Source: Octopus vulgaris | Taxonomy: Eukaryota | Assembly: GCA_951406725.2 (NCBI GenBank) | Contig: OX597824.1 | Coordinates: 57,350,001 to 57,414,000, forward strand | Direction of reading: 5' to 3' | DNA: 64,000 nucleotides | Part shown: one piece after another, positions 13,203 to 64,000 of the stretch | Position numbering within the stretch: the stretch's first letter is position 1 | Layout: each line of letters begins with the position of its first letter | Translations under genes and position numbers: made by a program | The notes under the pieces: model-generated | Database searches by the model: none | Seen by the model: the letters and a program-made list of their open reading frames with translations, nothing else | What the model was told of the DNA's origin: nothing

Positions 13203-13344
13203 CAGATATATATATACATGTATATATGTGTATGAAAATTATTGAGCCTCAACAAAACAAAACATGGTACAAGACTTCCGATGAAGGTTCAAGACTTCAA
13301 AGCGTGAAGGCCTTGAAGGCTCAAAACTTCTCATACACCCCTAG

Positions 13345-13489
13345 TATATATATATATACAACAGGCTTCTTTCAGTTTTTGCCTACCAAATCCACTCACA
13401 AGGTTTTCGTCGGCCCGAGTCTATAGTAGAAGAGACCTGCCCATGTGGGACTGAATCCGGAACCATGTGGTTGGGAGGTAAGCTACGTT
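13345..13489 (-). mobile_element. tRNA-derived SINE family A, body (head displaced to 15634-15668)
   Basis: Reverse complement agcttacctcccaaccacatggttccggattcagtcccac...gtgagtggatttggtaggc, matching 41161-41325. Confidence 0.9.
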
Positions 13490-15633
13490 ATTCCATTATA
13501 TTGGCCATAAAGGCCTTACACAGAGAAAGGAAGCTACGGGCTGGACACAGACATAATGTTATGTGAATGAAAAATGAAAATGATGATTAATGGTGGAAAA
13601 AGCGACACCTGCCGATCGTTCTTTCCGAGAACATTGTTCTCTTATATTATTCATGAGGCAACAAACCTCTTGCATTGTTCCCAATATTCAATAACAAAAT
13701 GAGACACGGAGCCTCTTACCTTTTTTGTCCGAACTAGGAACTTTCAAAAACACTAAGGCTTTTCAACCTCTTATCCATATTCCTCCCCAACATCGCTTGT
13801 GACCTCATCCTCTGCCATCACCCACGCCTCATTCCAGCACAAAGCGGGTGCCGTGTCGGCGTCGACCGGCCACATGTGATATTCCTCATTGAGTCCCTCC
13901 AGCCTACGCAACACGGGCAACGTTATGACCTCCACAGCTATCTGCAGAGACCATTCGGGATCCCGTGTGCAGGCTAAAAGTACTCCCTTATGGTGCCTTT
14001 CTAGCACCTTCTCCACCTCTCCGCCTCTGTATGAGAAGATCAATAATAGTCACTTCTACCGTCGGTAGCACAATTTCAACCGACGGTGTTTCTTCCTCTG
14101 CCTGTGGCACAATCCCCACCGACGAGGTTCCGACTCATTCTGGTACTATTTCACCGACTGCCGGCAATGTCCCGTTTCTCTTCCTCTTCCTCTTTTTTTT
14201 CTTCTCATCTGAGTGAGGGTGCGTCTCTTCCGTGACCGGGAGATTCGTCTCCACTCCCTCATCTCTAGGATACTTCGGTGAGCATCCATTGTTGCTCACC
14301 TTCTTTCTCATGTGGTCCTTCTTTGAGGAGTCCTCTACATCCTCGGCTGCCTTCGTTCCCTCTTCTACAGCGGTCTCAACCAACTGCTCCAGGGCGTTAC
14401 TTTGTTCCTGGGGAAGTTTTTCTTTATATGGCCAGGCCCCGGGCATCGATGATACCTGGTGGCGAGCCTCAAGAATCACCGGGTACCTGCACATGGCCAT
14501 TTTCAAAAGATTTGGAAATACCAGATTTTTGGCTGATTGGGTCCAGAGGGTCAAACCACTTTTAACCCCACCCAATCAGCTGCAGGTAAAATTTTTACAT
14601 TGGGGAGCTTGGCTCCGCTGCCACCCAGACCCTGGCAGATAGTGTCCTCTATCCACTCGGGTTCTATTCCGCGTGGCAAACCACAGACTCAAGCCCTCAT
14701 CGACGTCCTTCCACAATACGTGTGAAGAAACAAAATCTCTCTGCCCTCCAATGGCTAGCTAGCAAATTTGCGAGCCTCCTCAGGGGTGTCAAATAGCAAC
14801 AACACCATTGCATATTTGACACCCCTGGAGATGAATTTAATAGTTGGCAGATACTCTGCCAACTCCCTTTCGATAGCAGTTTTTTTCAAATAGGGCGATG
14901 GTGTCGAGCGACTTGGAGTAGGTCCTCAACACCACCGTCCTCTCTTCGAAGTCTTTCAACCACTGTTTGGTTGGTACAATTTCCCACTCCAAAACATTGT
15001 GCTTGTTCTTTGCCATGTTTTTTTTAAAATAAAAAGTCCCAAAACAGTTCATGATTAAAATTGTAAAAAAAAGAAGAAAGAAAAGGAAAGAAATCAAAAG
15101 AAAGTCACAACAAAACGGAAGGAAGAAAAAAGAAAACAGTTCAATAAAAAGAAACTCGCAAAAAATATAGAAGAAAAGAAAGCAACAGTTCAAAAAAACA
15201 CAGCAAGAAATCTTCTAGCCACGCGGTAATCCATGCCAATTTGGTACTCCGATTTGAACCTGGAACGCCACCGCTTGAACACACCTTTCACAAAAATTGG
15301 TAAAAGAAAGTGTATCTTCGATAAATTCTCACAAATTTTGAAAAAAAACAAACTATTCACTAAAAGTGAACAATTTTTTGGCAGCGAGATACGCCCCCAA
15401 ACAAAACTTCTATTCACTCAACTGCAGGCAGACCAGAGTCCAGAATCCAGTGAGGACTTCTTGTTTGTAAAAATATAATTACGGCAAACAACAAACCCCC
15501 ACTGGACCCAAAAAAAACAAAAGTCTTACCTTACAGTTGAACTTTTTTTAATCACTATTTCACCGGCTTCAAACCTGCGTCGTAACTTTAATCAGTGATA
15601 CGAACAACACTGACGACGAAACGTATGCACAGT
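13490..15633 (-). mobile_element. ORF1-only Tx1-like retroelement, copy 1, inserted in a SINE head
   Basis: Homologous to 60571-62754 over 5' leader and ORF; ~280 bp 3'UTR; no RT; flanked by the two halves of a SINE. Confidence 0.8.
13771..15016 (-). pseudogene. Frameshifted ORF1-like protein (putative RRM-like N-terminus, CCHC knuckle, charged linker, conserved C-terminal domain)
   Basis: MAKNKHNVLEWEIVPTKQWLKDFEERTVVLRTYSKS...FISRGVKYA...GLPRGIEPEWIE...YRGGEVEKVLERHHKGV..DPEWSLQIAVEVIT; several stops and frameshifts. Confidence 0.8.
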
Positions 15634-15668
15634 GGGAAGAAATCCTCTTACCACACAGCTACATCTAT
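15634..15668 (-). mobile_element. SINE family A 5' head (A-box) separated from its body
   Basis: Reverse complement tagctgtgtggtaagaggatttcttccc versus family head tggctgtgtggtaagtagcttg. Confidence 0.7.
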
Positions 15669-17678: not shown

Positions 17679-17776
17679 TGCTTTATTTTCGACATATGTT
17701 TCGAAGGCTGCATATTCCTAATTTCGAAGGAATAAGGGGTGCATTATGCCGCCTTCTCATCAGGAAAAACAAGGAA
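17679..17776 (-). ncRNA. Minimal type I hammerhead ribozyme, minus-strand mirror copy
   Basis: Reverse complement of 17900-17997 with intact core. Confidence 0.85.
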
Positions 17777-17899
17777 CTTATGTCAGCATCAAGATGCACA
17801 AAAGCTTTTAGATGACTGCCCACGCGGAGCCCATAGCGATAATGGGCTCCGTGTGGGCAGTCATCTAAACGTTTTTGTGCATCTTGATGCTGACATAAG

Positions 17900-17997
17900 T
17901 TCCTTGTTTTTCCTGATGAGAAGGCGGCATAATGCACCCCTTATTCCTTCGAAATTAGGAATATGCAGCCTTCGAAACATATGTCGAAAATAAAGGA
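17900..17997 (+). ncRNA. Minimal type I hammerhead ribozyme, core intact
   Basis: ttttc-CTGATGA(17913-19)-gaaggcggcata...tatgcagccttc-GAAAC(17974-78)-ATAT-GTC-gaaaa; predicted cleavage after C17985; stem I extends through ttcctt/aaggaa. Confidence 0.88.
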
Positions 17998-18065: not shown

Positions 18066-18113
<48 letters not shown>

Positions 18114-18115
<2 letters not shown>

Positions 18116-18680
18116 CATGCATATATAGGTAAAGAACGTAAAAAAACTAGAACAAAATGAAAAACGTAAAAAACAAAAACAGAAAACGAATTTTTTTCGA
18201 ACAACGAAAGAAGCAAATAGAGAAACGAGATAGGCAACATAAAGAACAATCCCTTCATCAGTTGTCGCCTGTTTTATCAACCTTGCGTTTCGAACGTTGA
18301 GACAAGCCACGACTTCGTTAAAACAGTCGTTCCCGCAAAGCAAATTAAGTGGTTCTGGATTCAGTCCTACTTGGGGAAGTGTCCCCTACTATAGACTCGG
18401 GTCGACGAAAAGAGAGGGACAGAAAGAGAATTTTATTTAATGTGCTTTGCGGGAACTACTGTTTTAACGAAATCGTGTCTTGTCCCAACGTTCGGAACGC
18501 GGAGTAGATAAAACAGGGAACAACAGATGAAGGGATTAATCTTTATGTTGCCTGTCTAGTTTCTCCATTTGTTTCTTTCGTTGTTCGAAGAAAAGTTCGT
18601 TTTCAACATTTTTGTTTTTTATGTTCCCATTTTTCATTTTCTTCACGTTTTTTTAAGTCCTGTACCCATATATGCATGTG
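18114..18680. repeat. Diverged inverted repeat (arms 18114-18349 and 18437-18680) with a SINE A fragment in the spacer
   Basis: Arms are recognisable reverse complements and carry GAAAC..GTH..CTGATGA motifs. Confidence 0.85.
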
Positions 18681-18763
18681 TATATACATATATATGTAGG
18701 TATTGCATATATGTATATATGCATATATATATTATTTATATTATCATATCCATTTCCAAGTAA

Positions 18764-19138: not shown

Positions 19139-19156
19139 ACTTAAAGAATGTGTTAC

Positions 19157-19258
19157 GCTTACTGCACTTAGGTTTCCCAAGCGGTCACCCATCTAAGTAC
19201 TGACTAGGCTCGGTGATCGGACGAGAACCGGTGCTTTCAACGTGATATGGCCGTAAGC
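19157..19258 (-). pseudogene. 5S rRNA: 5S rRNA pseudogene with ~16 nt internal deletion
   Basis: gcttacggccatatcacgttgaaagcaccggttctcgtccgatcaccga[gap]gcctagtcagtacttagatgggtgaccgcttgggaaacctaagtgcagtaagc; box A region missing and no oligo-T terminator. Confidence 0.92.
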
Positions 19259-19267
19259 ATATATATA

Positions 19268-19433
19268 CACGACTGGCTTCTTTCAGTTTCCGTCAACCAA
19301 ATCCACTCACAAGGCTTCCGGTCGGCCCGAGGCTATAGTAGAAGGCACTTGTCCAAGGTGCCACGTAATGGGACTGCACCCGGAATCATGCCGTTGGTAA
19401 GCAAGCTACTTACAACACACCCAGTTGTGCTCC
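19268..19433 (-). mobile_element. SINE family A
   Basis: Reverse complement matches 41161-41325. Confidence 0.9.
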
Positions 19434-20341
19434 TATATAAATTAGTTGTACTATTTATTATTTGTATTAGTCTTTTACCCCCTATTCCTATACCACACAG
19501 CACCATCCACCCACCATCCATCACACACCACTCACCCTCTCCCTCTCACGCACGCACGCACACACACAACTTCTACACACAATATACATATACACACAAC
19601 GCAAACACATACACATACACTCATACACGCTCGTACATACACTTTCACATACACACGCACACATATGAACGCACATATACCTCCACATACACAACATACA
19701 CATACACGCACATACATTCACTTCCACACTCATACAAATACACGCACCTACACACACGCACCCTCTTCAGATTGCTTTCAAACACCTTTATACTGCCCCA
19801 AGTACTACTGACCACCCCATCTATGCACATGTGCAAAAACACACAACCACCCATGGATACACCTGATACGATAGCTGCTGACCTCTCACTACGACATTAA
19901 CAGACACACACAGATCTCTCACATAAATACATGTATACCGTTAATACCTCACTATTCACACACGCTACCGCGCACACACACGCTACTCTACACACACACT
20001 GTATCACACACACGCACCACACGCGCGCGCACACACACACACACACGCACACACACATGCACACACACGCACACAAACACGTACACACGCACAGTTACTG
20101 CCACACACACGTACAACCACACATACACGCACACAGATACCAACCATTCTTCACACCCTCCTGTCTCTGCAAGCACTTTTTCTTTCTCCATCTACTTTCG
20201 CTCATTTCAAAATGTAACTACACATGGACTGTCGGCGATTTTTTCTCCTTCTTCCTCTTCTCTTGGGTGTGTGTGTGTGTGTGTGTCTGTGTGTTCGTAT
20301 GTGCATGTGTGGGGTGTGTGCATGTGCGTGTGAGTATTTCC

Positions 20342-22357: not shown

Positions 22358-22369
22358 TATATATATATC

Positions 22370-22545
22370 GGCGCAGAAGTGGTTATGTAATAAGATGCTT
22401 ACTTCCCCACATACTTCACCACATGGTTCTGGGTTCAGTCCCACTGCGTGGCACCTTAGGTAACTGTCTTCTACAATAGCCTCGGGTCGTCCAAATCCTT
22501 ATGAGTGGGTTTGGTAGACGGAAATTGAAAGAAGCCCATCATATA
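22370..22545 (+). mobile_element. SINE family A
   Basis: ggcgcagaagtgg...gggttcagtcccactgcgtggcacc...gaaagaagccc. Confidence 0.9.
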
Positions 22546-22670
22546 TATATAATTAAGATTCAGCTGGATTAGGTACTTAAATTGACGCACCAAGCCAGTT
22601 TGGTATAATCCGTACAGCTCGTTAGGTGAATAAATCGCAAACAAATAACAAGAATGTCCTGGTAACAATG

Positions 22671-23559: not shown

Positions 23560-25134
23560 CTAGCATTATGACCCTTCGTTGCCGGGTCATAGTGCTAGTG
23601 CATGTATATATGTGTATATACATGTGTACATATTACATGTACATCTATATATATACATCTACACATAAAATACAAAATACAAAGTTATATCTTGATATCG
23701 CTAGTGATAACAATACTCAAAATATATAACAAACTGGAATTGTAGGCCCGTCTCTTGCAATTTCGATCAATTGTATCTTGTCCTCCCTCTTGTATAGAAG
23801 TGTGGCTACAATCCAGCCTACCTCTACTTCTGGGGGGACATTTTAAATTTTTATCCGGGATGTCCTACGTCCCAGATATAAAGGTAAAAATAATATATTT
23901 CCACTTTGCAAGGTCCGAGTCGAGTACTCCCTTCTAGGTTGACTCGAACCTTGCTTCTATTGTGGCGAATTTACCGCCTCTGGTTAGATATCTTTCATAG
24001 TCGCACCCAGACACTTTTCGATGGTGCTTTCCTCCAGGTGTTCAAATCTTTTTTTCCTCTACATTGCATACTTCATAGACAATAGTCTTTTCTTTAATTT
24101 AATTTTTTATTTCGTTTGGTGATGTTATCCTAGATTCACCGTCTTTGTCGGTGATCAATCCGAAATAGGTTTGTATTTCTTCCATTTTAATTTTAATGAA
24201 ATCGCGCCCGCCGACGGCTGCAGCGAAATTCATTTTTGGACTTTCTTCTATCGAAGGCATTCTAACAAAAATGCTTCCGTATAAACGGGGGAAATATTGT
24301 CAATTTCCCCAAACAGGGCTACAATTCAATTTTTAAACAATAACCAAAACTCCTTCTCCCAAAAGGGGAGGGTTATGGTTTACAGTTATTTAACAAATGC
24401 AACACAACAACGTTTCCCTTACGAGGAACCAACAAACGTGATAACAATAGTTAAACAGTAGTAATAATAACAAACCTTACGGTGAATCAAAAAGCAGTAC
24501 GCAGTTGAAGCTATAGTCCTTTATGTATAAGAAATAAACCAACAGCAGTACTCAGTAGAAGCGGCTGTTCGATAAAACAGACATTACATACAGCCAAACT
24601 TCATATAGATAATGCTAGCTAATTAGCAGATAATCTAATGTAAAAGCCGTGGTAAACGGTATGTGCACAGCTCCATCTGGACTATTCCATTTCTGCACAC
24701 TAATTTTATTTTTGATTTATTCCCCTTCATGTGAAACCAAGTCACTCATGCAATTTTATAGCAATTGCTATTTTTACTTTTGTTATGTTACGATTATATT
24801 ATACTTTAGTTTGATTTTAATTATTACTTACTACATATAATTCAATTGTTATTATTATCTCTAATTTTTATTGTTAAAGTGAAAGTATCTGACATAAAAT
24901 AGAGAGATGTTTTTGTTTCACTTTTAACACGTAATACTGAAATAGTGGAGAAGATATGATATTGCTATGGGCTCGTCCTAGGCAAGAAGTTGAACATTGT
25001 TTTTGCCTATGAAACTACATGGACCCTAAGTAAGGCATGTGTAAAATTTGAATGAAATTGGTTGTGTAGTTCTTAAGTTTTAGGGAAACACACAGACAGA
25101 CAGACACACATTCTCAGTTTTATATATATAGAGA
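23560..25134 (-). mobile_element. Helitron-like element interrupted by a Tx1-like ORF1 fragment
   Basis: Minus-strand start tctctatatatataaaactgagaatgtgtgtctgtc; hairpin ctagcattatgaccc..gggtcatagtgctag with CTAG at the other end; pairing of the two ends is inferred. Confidence 0.5.
23735..24185 (-). pseudogene. Distant homolog of the Tx1-like ORF1 (N-terminal half)
   Basis: KEKTIVYEV...YLTRGGKFATIEARF...LYLGRRTSRIKI*NVPPEVEVGWIVATL aligns with EDRTVVLRT...FMSRGVKYATVRLLF...TYYGRRLTKARLCGLPPGIKPEWIEETI. Confidence 0.7.
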
Positions 25135-41155: not shown

Positions 41156-41160
41156 TATAG

Positions 41161-41330
41161 GCGCAGGAGTGGCTGTGTGGTAAGTAGCTTGTTTACCAAC
41201 CACATGGTTCCGATTTCAGTCCCACTGCGTGGCACCTTGGGCAAGTGTCTTCTACTATAGCCTCGGGCCGACCAAAGCCTTGTGAGTGGATTTGGTAGGC
41301 GGAAACTGAAAGAAGCCCGTCGTATATATG

Positions 41331-42473: not shown

Positions 42474-42829
42474 AAGATAGAAGCGTAATCCCTCCCCAAT
42501 TATAGCAATCGATGAGTTTTCCGTTCTTTGGAAGCTTGATGATTACGCCCCCACCTCCCGTTGCCAATCCTCTGGGACCCGGCCTGTCATCCAGCATACA
42601 TTTAGGAGGGCCGTCGGATGTTCGACAATGGGATGACCACCGTGTTCCAGCATCTCCGCTGCCACCAAAAGAAAGGTCGTCAATATCGTTTTCTTAAGAT
42701 GGCTGCAAAGGGCGGTGGATGAGAGGCTCCGAGAAGAACAAGCCGGTTTTCGACGCGGACAGTCGTACAATGAACAAATCGTGTTGCGCAACATTATCGA
42801 ACAGAGCGTCAGGGTACATGTGTGTACAC

Positions 42830-42860
<31 letters not shown>

Positions 42861-43832
42861 TGTATGTATGTTTGCGTATGCATGCATGTGTATGCATATA
42901 TATATGTATGCAAAATGGTACATTTTACCCCCTCCCCTATTTCTTATGGCAATCGACTTCGTCATGCGCGGGGCGATGCACCAACCCAGATTTGAGATTC
43001 CGTGGTTTGGTTCGGGGCGCCTGACTGACCTCGACTTCGCCGATGACATCGCACTCCTCGGAACGACGAAGAATGTCATTCGCACAATGACAGAGAGATT
43101 GGAACGGGAGGCGGCCAAGATCGTACTCCGCATAAGTGCAAACAAGACGAAGATCATGAGGATTGGATATGTCGATGAGAACATTAATAGCGTCCCCTTG
43201 ATGACTGGACAACACCAAATCGAGGAAGTTGATGAGTTCACCTATTTGGGCAGCATCGTGGCAAAAGACGGAGACGCCTGAACGCGACGTTGCCTGCCGG
43301 ATTGGGGAGGTCTCGGCTGTCTTCTAAAGATTCAAACCCATCTGGGCAGGCAGGGCAATCTCCATCAAGACCTAAGTGCGCCTCTTCAACAGCATCGTCA
43401 TACCATCGGCAATATACGCTGCAGAAACATGTAGGACATCGGTAAAGATCGCACGAAGTCTGAATATATTTCAGTTATGATGCCTCTGGCAGATACTGCG
43501 AGTATTATGCCATGACCACATCACCAACAACGAGATACATCACCGAACTGATACCCATCCATCCCGTAACGTTGTCACTGAACGCCGCTTACAATTCGCA
43601 GGCCATGTCCTCCGATTACCATTGTTACAGTATGCGAAAACCGCCATTCTGTGGAAGCCAATGCATGGCAAGAGAAAACAAGGGCAGCCAAAAGCGACTT
43701 GGCGCCGCACCTTCATCGATAACCTCAAAGTCATTGACATTTAATGGGATGAAGCTGAAATTGCCGTGGCCGACCGACCACGTTGGAGAAGCCTTGCCGC
43801 CCAATGTGCCGCTGGAGGACTCAAAACTAAGA
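42474..43832 (+). mobile_element. RTE-clade LINE, 5'-truncated, with inverted 5' segment and internal replacement
   Basis: Minus 42474-42666: AEMLEHGG..VPEDWQ..IIKLPK..NWGGITLLS; plus: LREEQAGFR..DLDFADDIALL..EFTYLGSIV..YAAET. Confidence 0.92.
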
Positions 43833-52655: not shown

Positions 52656-54228
52656 GATACAAGCGGGGATTGACCAACTGATGGCACTACCAGAAAGACA
52701 ATGACAATGCACGGTGTCCTCCAGCCTAAGGCAAATGTACACATGCTCAACACGAAGACAGGTAAAAGTAAAGGAAAAATGAGAGAAACATCCAACGTTA
52801 AAATTGACCAGCAGAATGTCATAAAGGAGTTAGAACCAGCGGAGAGCTACAAATACCTAGGGGTATTTGAATCAAACATTTAGTGATGAGAGAAAAAATC
52901 AGAAGAGAATATTATCGCAGAGTGAGATCAATACTTAAGACTGAGATGAATGCAAGCATAGGATCGAAACGATCTATACTGTAGCCATACCAGTCATGAC
53001 TTACAGTTTCAATACCATTAACTGGTCATTTACTGAAATACGTAAGCTTGACAGAAAAATACGAAAATTGTTGATAATGCATAGAATGCACCACCCTAAG
53101 GCAGATACAGAACGACTTTACCTGCCAAGAAAAGAGGGTGGCCGTGATCTTTTACAACCGGAATTAACAATGAAGATTGCTACAATTGGCCTAGATACCT
53201 ACCTGAAAAACTCTGATGACTAGATGTTAAAACTGCTCTCAAAGCATGAAAACAAGAAAGCATCATACTCAGTAACAAAACAGGTAAAGGAATTAAGTGA
53301 TTTCCAAATACAACAAATTCCAGAATTAGACATACTAGAAATAAGCACAGAAAAAGCTAAGCGTATGAAAACACATGCTAAAACTGCTGCCTTAGATATT
53401 CTTACTGATAAATGGCAAGAAAAACCTCTCAATGGCAAATACCCAAAGAGAGCTAATACTGCCGATGTTGACAAAGCCCTTACCAATCAATGGTTAATGG
53501 CTTTTGGCTTAGAATCAGAAACAGAATGGTTTATCTATACCTACCCACAAGGAACTACCAGGCAAACATATTAAAGAACGGTAGTAGCCCAAGATGTCGT
53601 GTATGTCAACAGTAAAATGAGATCATTCATCATGTTGCCACCATGTGCAGTCTTCTTGCGCCTACAGAGTATCTCAACAGGCATGATAGAACAGCACAAT
53701 ATATTCACTGGTTCCTGCCCCATGATAAGAACTGGTGGGAACACAAAACCACCTCCAGTGCTTGAAAATGATCACATCTGGAACTTTATTCAAACTGACA
53801 GAAAGATAGATTCGAATAGGCCAGACATTGATATAAATGTTCCAATCAACATAAATGTATATGCCAAGACCTACCAAAAACTGAGCAAGTATAAAGATCT
53901 TGATATAGAAATTGGCAAAATGTGGAACCTCAAAACTAAAACAATTCCTGTTGTCATAGGTGCCCTAGGAATGATAGCAAAAGGGGCTGATTCCTACCTT
54001 GCTCAGATACAAGGAAACCCCAAAATGGCAGTAATTCAAAGGATAGTGCTCATGGGAACTGCCCATATCCTACGTAAAATACTGTCTATGTAATCTCAAA
54101 TTTTAAAACAAACTCAATTTTTAATGGTTTCTTAAACATTCTCTATGTGAACTTCTAACTTGTTGTCTCTTGAGGACTCTGGGTAAGACTTAGAGTCAAC
54201 TTGTATAAATGCAAAGCAAAAGTCTAAC

Positions 54229-54230
<2 letters not shown>
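52655..54230 (+). mobile_element. R4/Dong-type element, family D2, decayed
   Basis: YKYLGV, MHHPKADTERLYLPRKEGGR, NRPD..KLSKYKDL..IPVVIGALG; (TAA)n flanks. Confidence 0.9.
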
Positions 54231-54309
<79 letters not shown>

Positions 54310-54313
<4 letters not shown>

Positions 54314-56590
54314 CTCAGCATCTGAGCAACTTTGGATCCCCATAACAACCGAAGAGGTCACCCAGGCACTGCAAAGACTAAGCAACTGGAAGGCACCTGG
54401 GCATGACAAGATACCCAACTTCTGGTTGAAATATCTAACAGGAATGCACAAAAAGCTGGCTGAAAACTTTAACAACATACTAGCAGAGCCAGAGACAATG
54501 CCAGAATGGCTCACGAAGGGGAAAACCATCTTAATTCCTAAATCAAATGAGACAGCAAAACCAGAAAACTACAGACCAATAACCTGTCTCCCTACAATGT
54601 ACAAGGCATTTACTGCAGTGATATCGCAAAGGTTGAACAAGCACCTGGACGAAAACAACCTGTTTCCAGAAGAGCAGAAAGGATGCCGCAAAGGCTCATA
54701 TGGCTGTAAAGATCAACTAATGATTAATAAAGCCATAACTGAAGACAGCCACAGAAAGAAGAAAAGCCTCAGTATGGCCTGGATCGACTACAAAAAGGCG
54801 TTTGATAGCATCCCCCACACATGGATCCTCGAAACACTAGTCATTAACAAAGTAGCATCAACAATTATAAAATTCATAGGACACTCTATGAATAAATGGC
54901 AAACAGTGCTATAGCTCCAAACAAAAGAGGGACTCATGAAAACCAAAGCCATCCCCATTAGAAGAGGAATATTCCAGGGAGACACGCTCTCTCCACTCCT
55001 TTTCTACTTGGCACTGTCACCTCTATCTGATATGCTAAATAGAACTGGATGCGGATATAAATGTTACGGCAAAACGATCAGCCACCTTTTATATATGGAT
55101 GAGCTAAAACTATACGCTGCAAATGACAAACAGCTGGAAACACTATTAAAGACAATTCATGGATTTACCAAAGAAATAGATATGAAGTTTGGATTAGAAA
55201 AATGCGCCAAAGTAACCCTGAAAAAAGGAAAACTAGTTAAGAGTAGCAACATTACACTAGATAAACCCAATGAAATAAAAGAATTAGACCAAAGCCAAAC
55301 TTACAAGTACTTAAGAATCCATGAACTAGATAAGACACAACACACACAAATGAAAGACAAAATAAAAAAAGAATATTTTAGAAGAGTTAGATCATTACTA
55401 AAAACAGAGCTCAATGCTAAAAACAAGATAATAGGTATTAACACTTTAGCTGTCCCAGTTATAAGTTACAGCTACAATATCCTTAACTGGACACTAAATG
55501 AACTGACCAAAATAGATAGGAAAACAAGAAGAATAATGACAGGATCTAGGATGCATCGCCCAAAATCTGACATAGAAAGACTATATATACAACGTATAGA
55601 AGGTGGTAGAGGCCTTATACAGCTGGAAAACTACTATAAAATAACCACCATAGGACTGCAAAAATATCTACTTCAGAAGGAAGGAAAACTGATACAAATA
55701 GGGGCAAAACACGAGCAAAACAAAAAGCTGTTCTCAGTATTTAAGGAAGCTGACAAATACAAACAAGAAATCATACCACCTAACAAATATGAAGAAACAA
55801 CAAAAGCTATAAAACAAATGAAATCCAAACTAAAACTAAAACAGCAAAGAACCATGATAAAACGATGGCAAGAAAAGCCCTTTCATGGTAAATCCCAGCA
55901 ATGTTTGAGAAGCTCAGGACTCAAAGCAGAGACAGAGGGATTTTTAATTGCAACACAAGACCAAAGCATCCATACCAGAAATTACCAAAAACATGTAATG
56001 AAAAGAAATATAACAAGTAACTGCAGAATATGTGGAGATGGACAAGAAACAATAAATCATGTTATATCTGACTGCCCAGTCCTAGCTAAGAAGGATTATA
56101 TTCACAGACATGACAGAGTTGGAACCTACATACACTGGAAGCTATGCCAACATTATGGAATAACAACAGAAAAAAGATGGTATAGGCACACACCAGAAAA
56201 GGTCACAGAAAACGAGAAAGCAACCATACTCTGGGATATGCCGATTCACACAGAGAGAGAAATTAAGGCCAACAGACCAGATATAGTTGTCAGAGATCAT
56301 GAAGAAAAAAATGCTTTCTAATTGATGTATCAATACCGGCAGATGACAACGTGTCTCTAAAAGAAATGGAGAAACTTTCAAAATACAAAGACCTGGAAAT
56401 AGAGGTAACCAGACTGTGGAATCTAAAAACAGAAACAATTCCTATCATAGTAGGTGCATTAGGCATGATAAAAAAATATTCAGACAAATACATAACAAAA
56501 ACACCAGGACTTACAAACATATATAACATACAGAAAATTGCACTACTAGGCACTGCACACATCCTACGCAGAACACTTTCAATACAGTAA
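54310..56590 (+). pseudogene. Reverse transcriptase-restriction-like endonuclease polyprotein, disrupted
   Basis: WKAPG.D, YRPITCL, IDYKKAFDS, GIFQGDTLSP, YMDE (catalytic DD changed to DE), in-frame stop at 54912, frameshift near 56310. Confidence 0.93.
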
Positions 56591-60509: not shown

Positions 60510-60533
60510 TACACACAAGTATGGCTGTGTGGA

Positions 60534-60570
60534 GGCGCAGGCGTGAATGTGTGGTAAGAAGCTTGCTTCC
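60534..60570 (+). mobile_element. SINE family A 5' head (target of the adjacent element)
   Basis: ggcgcaggcgtgaatgtgtggtaagaagcttgcttcc versus 41161 ggcgcaggagtggctgtgtggtaagtagcttgtttacc. Confidence 0.85.
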
Positions 60571-62754
60571 ACTGCGCATGTGCGAGTAATTGTGATGTTT
60601 GGCACCAAAGCGGTGAGACGTGCTTTTGAAGCCGTCTCGAACTGAAAAATTTTGAAGCTCCACTGTAAGTAAGATTCTGTTTTTTGGGTCCAGTGGGAAT
60701 TTTTGTTGAGAATTTTTTGTACACGCAGGAAGTCTTACTGGATTCAGAATTCTGGTCTACTTGCATGGAGCGAATATTTTTTCTCGCTTAATTGTGAGAA
60801 TTTTTGTTTGGGGGCGTATTCGTCTTCCTAGTTAGTGGTTTATGTTAAGTGAATATTTTTCTCACTTAATTATGAGAATTGTTGCTTGGAGGAATATCGT
60901 GCCAACTAAAAATTTGTTCACTTTTTGAAGAATTAAAAAATAACTGTGAGAACTGCTGTTTGGGGGAGTGTCTTTGCCTCCGAAGATTGAACGATTTGTA
61001 TACCAGTTTTTGTGGAAGTTGTGTTCCAGTTGTAGCATTCCGGGTTAAACCTGGGCCGGGAGTACCGAATGGCCGGAATATTTTTTTTTCTGTGTTTCTG
61101 AACTATTGACTTTCTTTCTTCTAAACTTTATTTGACTTTCTCTTTTTCGTGAATTGTTTCCTTTTCTCCTTTCCATTTTATTGTGACTTTCTTTTGATTT
61201 CTTTTTTCTTCTCTCGTTTTATTTTGAACATATTTTCGAACTGTTAAAAAAGAAGGGAAACATGGCAATGAAAAAAGACAAAGTATTGGGGTGGGAGATT
61301 GTAACGCCCAAAAAGTGGTTGAAAGACCGTGAAGATAGGACGGTGGTGTTGAGAACCTACTCCAAGTCATTCGACACCATCGCCCTATTCGAAAGACTGC
61401 AATTGAAAAGGAGTTGGCAGAGTATTTGCCAACAATTAAATTCATGTCCAGGGGTGTCAAATACGCAACGGTGCGATTGCTATTTGATACCCTTGAAGAG
61501 GCTCGCAAATTATGAGTCAGCCCTTGGATGTAAAGAAATTTTGTTTCTTCTCACATATTATGGGAGGAGGTTGACGAAAGCTCGGCTCTGCGGGTTGCCA
61601 CCCGGGATAAAACCCGAGTGGATAGAAGAGACTATCCGCCGGGGTCTGGATGGCAGCGGAGCCAAGCTCCTTAATGTGAATTTTTTTCCTGTGGCTGATT
61701 GGCTTGGGTCAAAAGCTATTTTGACCCTTTGGACCCAAAAAGCCAATCTGGTTTTACCAGATTATTTTAAAATGGCCGGGTGCAGGTACCCGGTGATTCT
61801 TGAAGGTTGCCCCCTCCTCAGGTATCATCGGTGCCTGGAGTCTGACCATATAAAGAAAAACTGTCCTCAGGAACAAAGTAAGGTCCTGGAGCAGTTTAGT
61901 GAGACATCTGTAGAAGAGGGAATGAATGCGGTCGAGGAGGCGGAGGACTCCGCAAACAGGGGCCGCAAGAGGAAGAAGGTGAGCAACAATGGGTGCTCAC
62001 CGAAGGATCCTAGGGATGAGGATGGGGAGGCGAATCTCCCGATCACGGAGGAGACGCACCCTCCCTCAGTTGAAAAGAAAAAAGAGGAAGAGGAAGAGAA
62101 ACGGGACATTGCCGGCAGTCGGTGACATATAGCGGAATGTCCCGGAACTATGTCGGTTATGGTTGTGCCACCGGCAGGAGAAGAGATACCGTTGGCGGGA
62201 ACTGTGCCACAAACGGAAGAATTGGATATCCCGCCCCCGGAGGAAGACGAATTATTGATCTTCTTCTATAGAAGCGGAGAGGTTGAAAAGGTGGTGGAAA
62301 AGCACCATAAGGGAGTACCTTTAGCCTTCACACAGGATCCCGAATGGCCTCCGCAGATAGCTGTAGAGGTCATAACGTTTGACGTGACGTTTAGGCTGGA
62401 GGGGCTCAATGAGATATATCGCTTGTACCCGGGCGACGCCGACATGGAACCCGCTTTGTTCTTGAATGAGGCGTGGAGGATGGAGGAGGATACGGGCACA
62501 AAATATGTTGAGGGTGAGTTATAAATTGTGGCACAGTGTGACACAAACATTTGATAATAGGCACTTCGCCTTCTTTCTGAACTCCCGGGTGTCAACGTGG
62601 TCTGCTCTGCAGGCGGCTAGATATTTGACTGGGGTCCGGGAGGAGGAGGAAGGGAAAAGTGGTAGTGTATTTTTGATATTTGATTAACTTTTTGATTTTT
62701 ATGTAAGAAAAGAACCTGTGATTGTAATGCCCCCACAGCCAATTTGATAACATA
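60571..62754 (+). mobile_element. ORF1-only Tx1-like retroelement, copy 2, with 15 bp TSD
   Basis: TSD aagaagcttgcttcc (60556-70) / aagaagctttcttcc (62755-69); ~690 bp leader, ORF, ~230 bp 3'UTR, no RT. Confidence 0.85.
61262..62524 (+). pseudogene. ORF1/gag-like protein with CCHC knuckle and conserved C-terminal domain, frameshifted
   Basis: ORFs 61262-62125 and 62150-62524; YHRCLESDHIKKNC (CX2CX4HX4C with first C changed to Y); RKRKK basic patch; comparison with copy 1 shows compensating frameshifts near 61395-61530. Confidence 0.82.
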
Positions 62755-62769
62755 AAGAAGCTTTCTTCC

Positions 62770-62840
62770 CGGAGGGAGGAGCCCATGCCCTGGACAGAGA
62801 ACGAGGAGTGGCCTTCGCAGGTGACTACGAAGATCATATC
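62770..62840 (+). mobile_element. Short fragment of a related ORF1-family element directly after the TSD
   Basis: EPMPWTENEEWPSQVTTKII aligns with VPLAFTQDPEWPPQIAVEVI. Confidence 0.55.
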
Positions 62841-64000
62841 TTAGCCTTTTTTAGCCTTTTTCATTAATAATTTTTATTCTATTTTCCCACGCAACCTCTC
62901 CACGAGTTTTATTTCTTATAGACGCCCAAAACTATTCTTTACGTTTATAATCTAGTGATGTTTTCTCAACTAACTAAGCAACGTTCTTTCGCCATTTCGT
63001 TTGGATTTTGTATTATTTTGGGATTAATATGTAGCTGTTATTAATATTGTAATTGATATATTATTAGGTGTCTGTTAGTTATAGTTGGGTGTCTTCATGC
63101 TAGTTTCTCCATAAGTTGTGTTTTTTTCTCACTTTTCTTTAGTTCATGAGGCTTTAATGTTTTTTCGGTCTTTTCGTATTTTTCATTGATAAAAAAATTT
63201 GCCATTTTCATTGAGTATGTATTCTATTTCTTTGCACTAAGTCACCACGCGTTAAATTTTATAAACACTTATACTATTTTGCGTTAAAAATTCAGTTACT
63301 TTTTTCCTTCGCAAAGATAAGTTTGACATTTTATCGTTTATCTATTTCATTTGAATTTGGAATCGTTTTGTGTTTGAAATTATAATAATTATTATTATTG
63401 TTGTTATTATTATTGTTGCTGTAATATTATTATTTATTTATAGTTTATTGATAGTAATTTTTTACGTTCGATATTGGATATGGTATCTTTTAATTTTTTA
63501 TATAGGAATTTATATAGGGATTTAAGTAAACTAGTTTTTATTTTAATATCAATTTTATGTTTAACTTTTTTTATCATGTGATATATTAAATCTATAGATA
63601 TTATACATAGATATTAATATAAGTAGTTTATATATTGGATTTGTGTATATTTGAACTATTTCCAATTTTTGATTGTATTATTCATGAATAGTAATAATAT
63701 TGGGTATATTAATTAGACGCTAAAACATATTAATACATTTAAAATCCAGATAGATTAATTGAATCGTTGAACTTAGTAACTTAGTTTGTTTATCAATATA
63801 TTTAGATCTTATTGTCATTATATTTAGATCTTGTTATCATTTTGAGTTTGACCGTTGTTATTATTATTATTGTTATTGATTGGTTTTGTAGAGGACTGGT
63901 GATTGTGATTGTAAATTTCATTGGTTCTAATATTTTTGCACCTTTCTTTAATTCTGGGGCTGAAAAGTTTTCTTAATTTCCATTAACAAATAATTCTCAC

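Follow-up and report, generated by a model that had tools for sequence, protein, structure and literature searches.

HAL1 elements are non-autonomous derivatives of the L1 group that encode only ORF1p and have several origins (PMC5753468). HeT-A of Drosophila also encodes only an ORF1 (Gag); it is targeted, is moved in trans by TART or TAHRE, and forms tandem arrays (PMC5537684). Other retroelements home on mobile elements, at fixed regions and in fixed orientation, as described for Tx1-Mar and SINEU in crocodilians and for Tx1L in Tx1D in Xenopus (PMC4494074). LINEs of the Tx1 clade also bring non-autonomous passengers to the target that they use themselves, and several relatives can be stacked there (PMC4494074). 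Insertion at fixed positions in tRNA-type sequence is described for NeSL-1_TV, LIN15/25_SM and Dada (PMC4640811, PMC8869645). In Octopus vulgaris, 80 L1-Tx1 families are described, 13 of them recently active; the words 'target', 'nested' and 'non-autonomous' are absent from that paper's main text (PMC13282606).

We analysed a 64-kb stretch of O. vulgaris DNA (hereafter, the window), which is microsatellite-rich animal DNA and contains two long copies of an element that encodes only an ORF1 protein and lies in the head of a SINE. The best explanation, to which we assign a probability of roughly 70%, is an Octopus family of ORF1-only non-LTR elements that is sequence-specific for the head of an abundant SINE and borrows its ORF2 from a Tx1-type LINE. 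The element resembles HAL1 in being ORF1-only and non-autonomous. HAL1 is mammalian and L1-derived, and a sequence-specific target is not mentioned in the sections of the source used here (PMC5753468), whereas the octopus element is molluscan and has a type I (RRM + CCHC) ORF1 and a fixed target. The targets of Tx1-Mar/SINEU and Tx1L are described as DNA transposons or LTR elements and their passengers as short non-coding SINEU; in Octopus, by contrast, a passenger with its own ORF1 is found in a SINE head. HeT-A is described as adding to chromosome ends, apparently without nicking, and as having a very long 3'UTR, whereas the octopus element has an internal sequence target with a duplication. 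The elements targeting tRNA genes are, as described, RLE-type LINEs or DDE transposons with true tRNA-gene targets. By analogy, the octopus element could work like HAL1 or HeT-A and choose its target in the manner of Tx1-Mar or Tx1L. The strategy is already known; literature searches did not find the combination of a HAL1-like element with a SINE-head target, or any cephalopod Tx1 element described as ORF1-only or as targeting a SINE. Repeat databases may hold one.

Table 1. Positions of the split SINE, the two element copies and the reference SINEs in the window.
Feature	Position	Strand	Remarks
ORF1-only element, copy 1, 2,147 bp	13487..15633	-	same orientation as SINE; multicopy in three contig runs
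T-rich 5'UTR, copy 1	15017..15633	-	first ~110 nt homologous to copy 2 5' end
ORF1, copy 1, ~415 codons	13771..15016	-	interrupted by several stops and frameshifts; contains RRM-like domains, a CCHC knuckle, a charged linker and a C-terminal part of ~90 aa
3'UTR, copy 1, 283 nt	13488..13770	-	longest stop-free stretch 42 codons; joined to ORF1 end in other copies
3'-terminal 33-nt motif ending AATAA	13488..13520	-	common to copy 2, 22/33
Left duplication copy, copy 1	15633..15647	-	14-17 bp depending on shared TAA/A letters; 13/15 to copy 2 right word
Right duplication copy, copy 1	13472..13486	-	SINE-only contigs clipped at 13486
SINE 5' half (head)	15634..15661	-	A-box-like TAGCTGTGTGG at 15661-15651; ~12 nt further 5' lost or decayed
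SINE 3' half	13345..13472	-	B-box-like GATTCAGTCC at 13457-13448; 11-bp deletion; (TA)n tail; 119/136 to 41.2-kb copy including duplication
Intact (empty) SINE, reference	41159..41330	+	
Intact (empty) SINE	19263..19434	-	
Intact SINE	22369..22547	+	short tandem duplication at target site
SINE head before copy 2, with left duplication copy	60533..60570	+	32/38 to 41.2-kb copy
ORF1-only element, copy 2, 2,185 bp	60571..62755	+	ORF1 61262-62524, frameshifted
Right duplication copy, copy 2	62756..62770	+	13/14 to left copy
Fragment B, 5'-truncated third diverged family member	62773..62860	+	ORF1 C-terminal part; two bases after duplication

An earlier note on this stretch held that copy 1 had inserted into a SINE rather than carrying it. 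All strings quoted there were found on the minus strand. On this strand the SINE head ends with CTTCCC at 15634, the element begins with ACTGTGCAT at 15633 and extends to 13487, its AATAA tail ends at 13488, and a repeated word at 13486-13472 is followed by the 3' half of the SINE, which goes on to 13345. The head (15682-15635) and the rest (13472-13352) were rejoined and aligned with each of the three intact SINEs in the window, with 134/159, 123/159 and 119/158 matching positions. The intact SINEs match each other at 149/171, 142/170 and 132/170 positions, and the identity of the rejoined halves is near this range. One SINE is rebuilt from both halves, which supports insertion into the SINE. 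The copy 1 head, whose first ~12 nt are lost or heavily decayed, agrees with the 41.2-kb copy at 25 of 38 positions.

The target SINE is ~170 nt long, has a (TA)n tail, is present in several copies in the window, and has a summed depth in the millions in public contigs. Its A-box-like and B-box-like motifs are putative calls by pattern, and the B pattern missed the 41.2-kb copy. Neither ARAGORN nor Rfam made a tRNA call on the SINE head, and the 64-kb window contains no tRNA gene. tRNA-derived SINEs of Octopus were reportedly described by Ohshima and Okada in 1994; they are the likely identity of the target. One otherwise intact SINE has a tandem duplication (22390-22425, plus strand) exactly at the target site, which slippage or the scar of an aborted insertion could explain.

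Both copies of the element look full length, since the 5'UTR of copy 1 starts like the 5' end of copy 2. The ORF1 stop is separated from the tail by 283 nt in copy 1 and 231 nt in copy 2, and the 3'UTR of copy 1, given its short stop-free stretches, has no room for ORF2. The element encodes neither RT nor endonuclease, only a broken type I ORF1. Marks of retrotransposition include the AATAA tail, the duplications, the truncated fragment B and a contig depth rising toward the 3' end. The tail is short, without a long poly(A). A DNA transposon or an LTR element was rejected because there are no terminal repeats, transposase, RT or integrase. A splice-donor-like CTGTAAG(G)TAAGA is kept in both 5'UTRs (at about 15530 on the minus strand and 60665 on the plus strand). 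In each of three contig runs, one contig skips 457 nt of the 5'UTR (15148-15606), a deletion variant of the family.

In both copies, stops and frameshifts interrupt ORF1. The nearest protein is XP_029652367 of O. sinensis (P0001; 53% identity, E 1.6e-60). Together with P0002 it makes up the two matches among 199 candidates, both Octopus sinensis gene models, and P0006 is a distant relative in the same species. Of the six HMMER hits, P0004 and P0005 are cadherin/cohesin repeat proteins and were set aside as unrelated. Pfam found no significant domain on ORF1, the best being zf-CCHC on P0001 (E 0.058), and nothing meaningful on the ORF1 pieces of the window. The neighbours of ORF1 in the Atlas are CCHC proteins of eukaryotes (0.92) and double RNA-binding (RRM) domains of the ZCCHC3 type (0.90). 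In a structure model from six sequences (pLDDT 51), residues 103-183 match RRM domains with a best Z of 7.3 (rmsd 2.6 over 73 residues), in a range (Z <8) that is common. One RRM is supported by this fold search, and the N-terminal RRM only by the model and the Atlas. Taken together, these results make the protein a type I ORF1 (RRM and CCHC knuckle), a type that fits Tx1 in non-mammalian animals and is not exclusive to it (PMC5203782). HAL1 proper, the mammalian L1 derivative, was rejected, as there is no type II ORF1: Pfam showed no Transposase_22, and the neighbours are RRM and CCHC proteins instead.

The C-terminal part of ~90 codons is stop-free in both copies (13771-14040, minus strand; 62243-62521, plus strand); it matches no known family and has no Atlas match above 0.78. 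Three RefSeq accessions exist for P0001, and the ORF1 N-terminus is part of P0002, a chimeric gene model. Together with the splice-donor-like motif, these models suggest that some copies may be transcribed or exonised. No longer ORF1-ORF2 relatives were found among 5,677 and 131 candidates, a search that amounts to weak evidence. The window also contains a distant ORF1 relative (23753-24197, minus strand), which matches P0006 at a tblastn E of 3.5e-14 and is truncated on the 3' side. Its surroundings show neither a SINE head nor a SINE tail, and the targeting therefore need not extend to the whole lineage.

Insertion at the same site at 60.6 kb had also been claimed, and both junctions of copy 2 are indeed at the SINE positions of copy 1. 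At the 5' junction (60570/60571), CTTCC is followed by ACTGCGCAT; at the 3' junction (62755/62756), CATAA is followed by AGAAGCTTTCTTCCC. The latter word has seven matches in the window at up to three mismatches, five in SINE heads or these junctions and two unrelated. Two points had been missed. Copy 2 has no SINE 3' half within the window, and its right duplication is followed by fragment B, a 90-bp piece, and then by AT-rich DNA to the window end. Fragment B has a DNA score of 47.5 with copy 2 and 44.5 with copy 1, compared to 34.5 for the best of 500 shuffles, and a tblastn E of 0.005. CTTCC(C) precedes three 5' junctions (copy 1, copy 2, fragment B), and (A)G[A/T]AGC follows two 3' junctions, all at one site of a multicopy SINE. 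Given that 64 kb contain five SINE copies with the target, the rough, post hoc chance is 1e-4 per junction. Copy 2 and fragment B are arranged as a tandem hit, as a regenerated target predicts. A second GGCTGTGTGG is found before the copy 2 SINE head (60523-60532, plus strand), a partial duplication of the head.

Instead, a head derived from a SINE could belong to the element itself, as its 5' end or promoter, and the 3' SINE match would then be a carried tail. The head is present in both full-length copies, copy 2 lacks the SINE 3' half, and some crocodilian Tx1 families are described as carrying U1/U2 heads (PMC4494074). However, copy 1 runs on into a full SINE 3' half, and the two heads are only 26/38 alike. 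Fragment B is 5'-truncated, yet begins at the same site, which marks this site as one that is cut and argues against a head belonging to the element. We consider a carried head improbable.

The copies, whose coding regions the earlier note called diverged, are 78.3% identical over 1,555 columns; in the 5'UTR identity is 74.6% over 134 columns. The outer flanks of the two loci are unrelated: the upstream 1-kb score of 29 was matched by 160 of 200 random window segments. The 3'UTRs were said to differ, and they are at best weakly alike (77/500 random segments as good; 28/1,000 shuffles as good under other scoring), but the last 33 nt are common to both. For this motif none of 100,000 shuffles was as good, and its best match in the whole window is the other copy; unrelated positions reach 20-21/33. 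It lies directly before the duplication in both copies.

In the RRM region, mismatches at codon positions 1/2/3 number 19/24/39 (p 0.005). Over all 337 codons they are 37/62/65 (third-position p 0.053, omega 0.62), and in the C-terminal 87 codons 11/23/11, with no third-position excess. The signal of selection over the whole ORF is weak. As far as this modest signal suggests, the copies diverged partly in active lineages and partly by decay. The 78% identity, the unrelated flanks and the third-position excess in the RRM region together make the copies separate insertions, in agreement with the earlier preference for independent insertions over a segmental duplication. Alternatively, the shared site could reflect one event, an ancestral insertion later duplicated or hitchhiking in the SINE. 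The two copies do lie within 45 kb, while summed depth suggests that tails make up about half a percent of the SINE depth, and the weakness of the whole-ORF signal points the same way. Such an origin is nevertheless very improbable: besides the unrelated flanks and the RRM-region excess, near-unrelated 3'UTRs end in the same motif and duplication, the copy 1 type of 3'UTR is itself multicopy, and fragment B is a further member at the site.

Both SINE halves had been reported with a degenerate duplication, whose poor quality was passed over; the halves are present, but the two words of copy 1 match at only 10/15 positions, against 13/14 in copy 2. At 13-16% pairwise decay, the rate suggested by the coding region, five mismatches in 15 have P = 0.04-0.08. 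The two halves around copy 1 may therefore derive from separate SINE copies; the targeting would still hold in that case. They could have been combined by recombination or gene conversion involving two occupied loci, or by target sequence that travelled with the RNA. The left word is nearer to the right word of copy 2 than to its own partner; it is of the GA type and the right word of the GTAG type, and both types are found among intact copies. Age alone could nonetheless give five mismatches (P 0.04-0.35 over all decay rates tried), and each word is only about three changes from the commoner SINE letters. We hold mixed halves to be unlikely.

Three runs of public contigs were searched at 80% likeness and gave 50,911 (X1), 29,987 (X12) and 25,791 (X13) contigs, most of them on the SINE; a raw-read run (X15) gave 26 reads, with no depth over most of the element. 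All 30 bins of the region have depth in X1, X12 and X13. The ORF1 bins of X1 sum to ~4,000-166,000, compared to 54-80 for two locus-identical contigs, a ratio that is not a copy number. The element family is multicopy, probably with hundreds of members. The ORF1-to-3'UTR joint of the copy 1 type is present in diverged contigs of all three runs, and the ORF1-only structure is therefore a family trait and not a private deletion.

Single X1 contigs skip the element, joining 13473 to 15646, 13476 to 15642, 13476 to 15636, and 13478 to 15644. In X13, 65 SINE contigs have their clip at 13486 and continue as SINE head, so that the duplicated word has its left edge fixed by independent data. The same other letter is carried at 13487, the final base ahead of the duplication, by 37, 39 and 32 contigs of X1, X12 and X13, respectively. 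The summed depth at this base is 58,151, 4,303 and 5,022, and 22 nt inside the element it is 36,690, 2,038 and 1,885; depth thus does not drop at the 3' end of the element. Provided that mismatches are clipped by the aligner, these contigs appear to be junctions of tail and target that stem from other loci. Their count is biased to SINE-linked tails, because the SINE part aids the placement of short contigs, and it speaks for the existence of such junctions, not for the targeted share.

The 5' junction is represented by a handful of contigs, with 2-9 per run carrying other letters at 15615 and 15624; none of these contigs was shown to continue into a SINE except at this locus. Contigs from two differently labelled organisms (X1 and X12) extend across the occupied 5' junction and differ from this locus at 0 and 1 positions, respectively. 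Among the X1, X12 and X13 matches listed there was no empty allele of this locus, and for X13 nothing near-identical; empty SINEs are present in public contigs. In JGI metagenomes the P0001 pattern had 595 matches, none confirmed, and the junction pattern had 0. The observation is confirmed and the earlier reading of it is supported; the evidence consists of two loci with three 5' junctions between them, and of contigs that bear on the matter indirectly.

We propose that the element gives rise to an RNA of ~2.15 kb and to its own RNA-binding ORF1 protein. The ORF2, with APE endonuclease and RT, would be supplied in trans by an autonomous Tx1-type LINE, likely one of the Octopus L1-Tx1 families, and would probably recognise the element via a shared 3' tail. 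Insertion by TPRT could begin with a bottom-strand nick at about TGGT(AA)^GAAGC, made by the endonuclease of the partner. At this point the TAA of the target matches the AATAA(A) of the tail and reverse transcription would be primed, and a cut of the top strand after CTTCCC(A) would leave a duplication of 14-17 bp. Such a duplication regenerates the target site, so that further members can stack in tandem, as copy 2 and fragment B do. Since the insertion falls between the A-box-like and B-box-like motifs, the internal promoter of the SINE should break and that copy would be silenced.

The true target could also be a tRNA gene or a short motif (CTTCCC), with SINEs hit as look-alikes, or the partner could belong to a non-Tx1 clade with a type I ORF1. 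Either possibility agrees with the anatomy and would alter what it means. Non-LTR families and Dada transposons that target tRNA genes exist (PMC4640811, PMC8869645), Kibi and Koshi are described as targeting TC/TTC repeats, and ORF1 types are common to several clades (PMC5203782). A short motif explains less, however, as both junctions are at fixed SINE positions in both copies, and we regard this pair of possibilities as doubtful. A three-tier arrangement in Octopus has about even odds: a Tx1-type LINE specialised on the most abundant SINE, which it cuts between the promoter boxes, would serve several ORF1-only subfamilies with ORF1 under selection, a common tail and target, and the ability to stack.

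If general, the finding would unite ORF1-only passengers (HAL1, HeT-A) with LINEs that target another mobile element, which have been described separately, and would add the SINE head as a type of target. It would offer a natural case for why a passenger keeps ORF1 while borrowing ORF2, and for how APE endonucleases gain new specificity. Very many dispensable target copies are an extreme safe harbour, and each insertion should disable one SINE copy. Annotation of octopus repeats would divide composites of this kind or give them wrong labels. No host function is implied, since both copies are old and no longer intact.

Several other repeats were observed in the window. A MITE-like element with 22-nt inverted arms (86%) lies directly past the tail of the split SINE (13228-13338) and is repeated in public contigs (69 at 13279). 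A 5S rRNA-like copy (19156-19258, minus strand; Rfam RF00001, 45.9 bits) adjoins the tail of an intact SINE and could be a pseudogene or a 5S-headed element. One inverted repeat (17700-17976) has 135-nt arms at 98% identity. At 18096-18698, nested inverted repeats with 158-nt and 90-nt arms surround an 88-nt core that holds a SINE fragment. Several RT-bearing LINE copies lie among (TAA)n tracts at about 50.9-59.5 kb (plus strand) and 46.7-47.9 kb (minus strand), with RVT_1 matches at E 2.9e-15 and 5.6e-11 at 54228-56318; their C-terminal motifs suggest Dong/R4-type elements. A further RT fragment (42637-43281, plus strand; RVT_1 E 1.4e-8), interrupted by a microsatellite, is presumably RTE-like.
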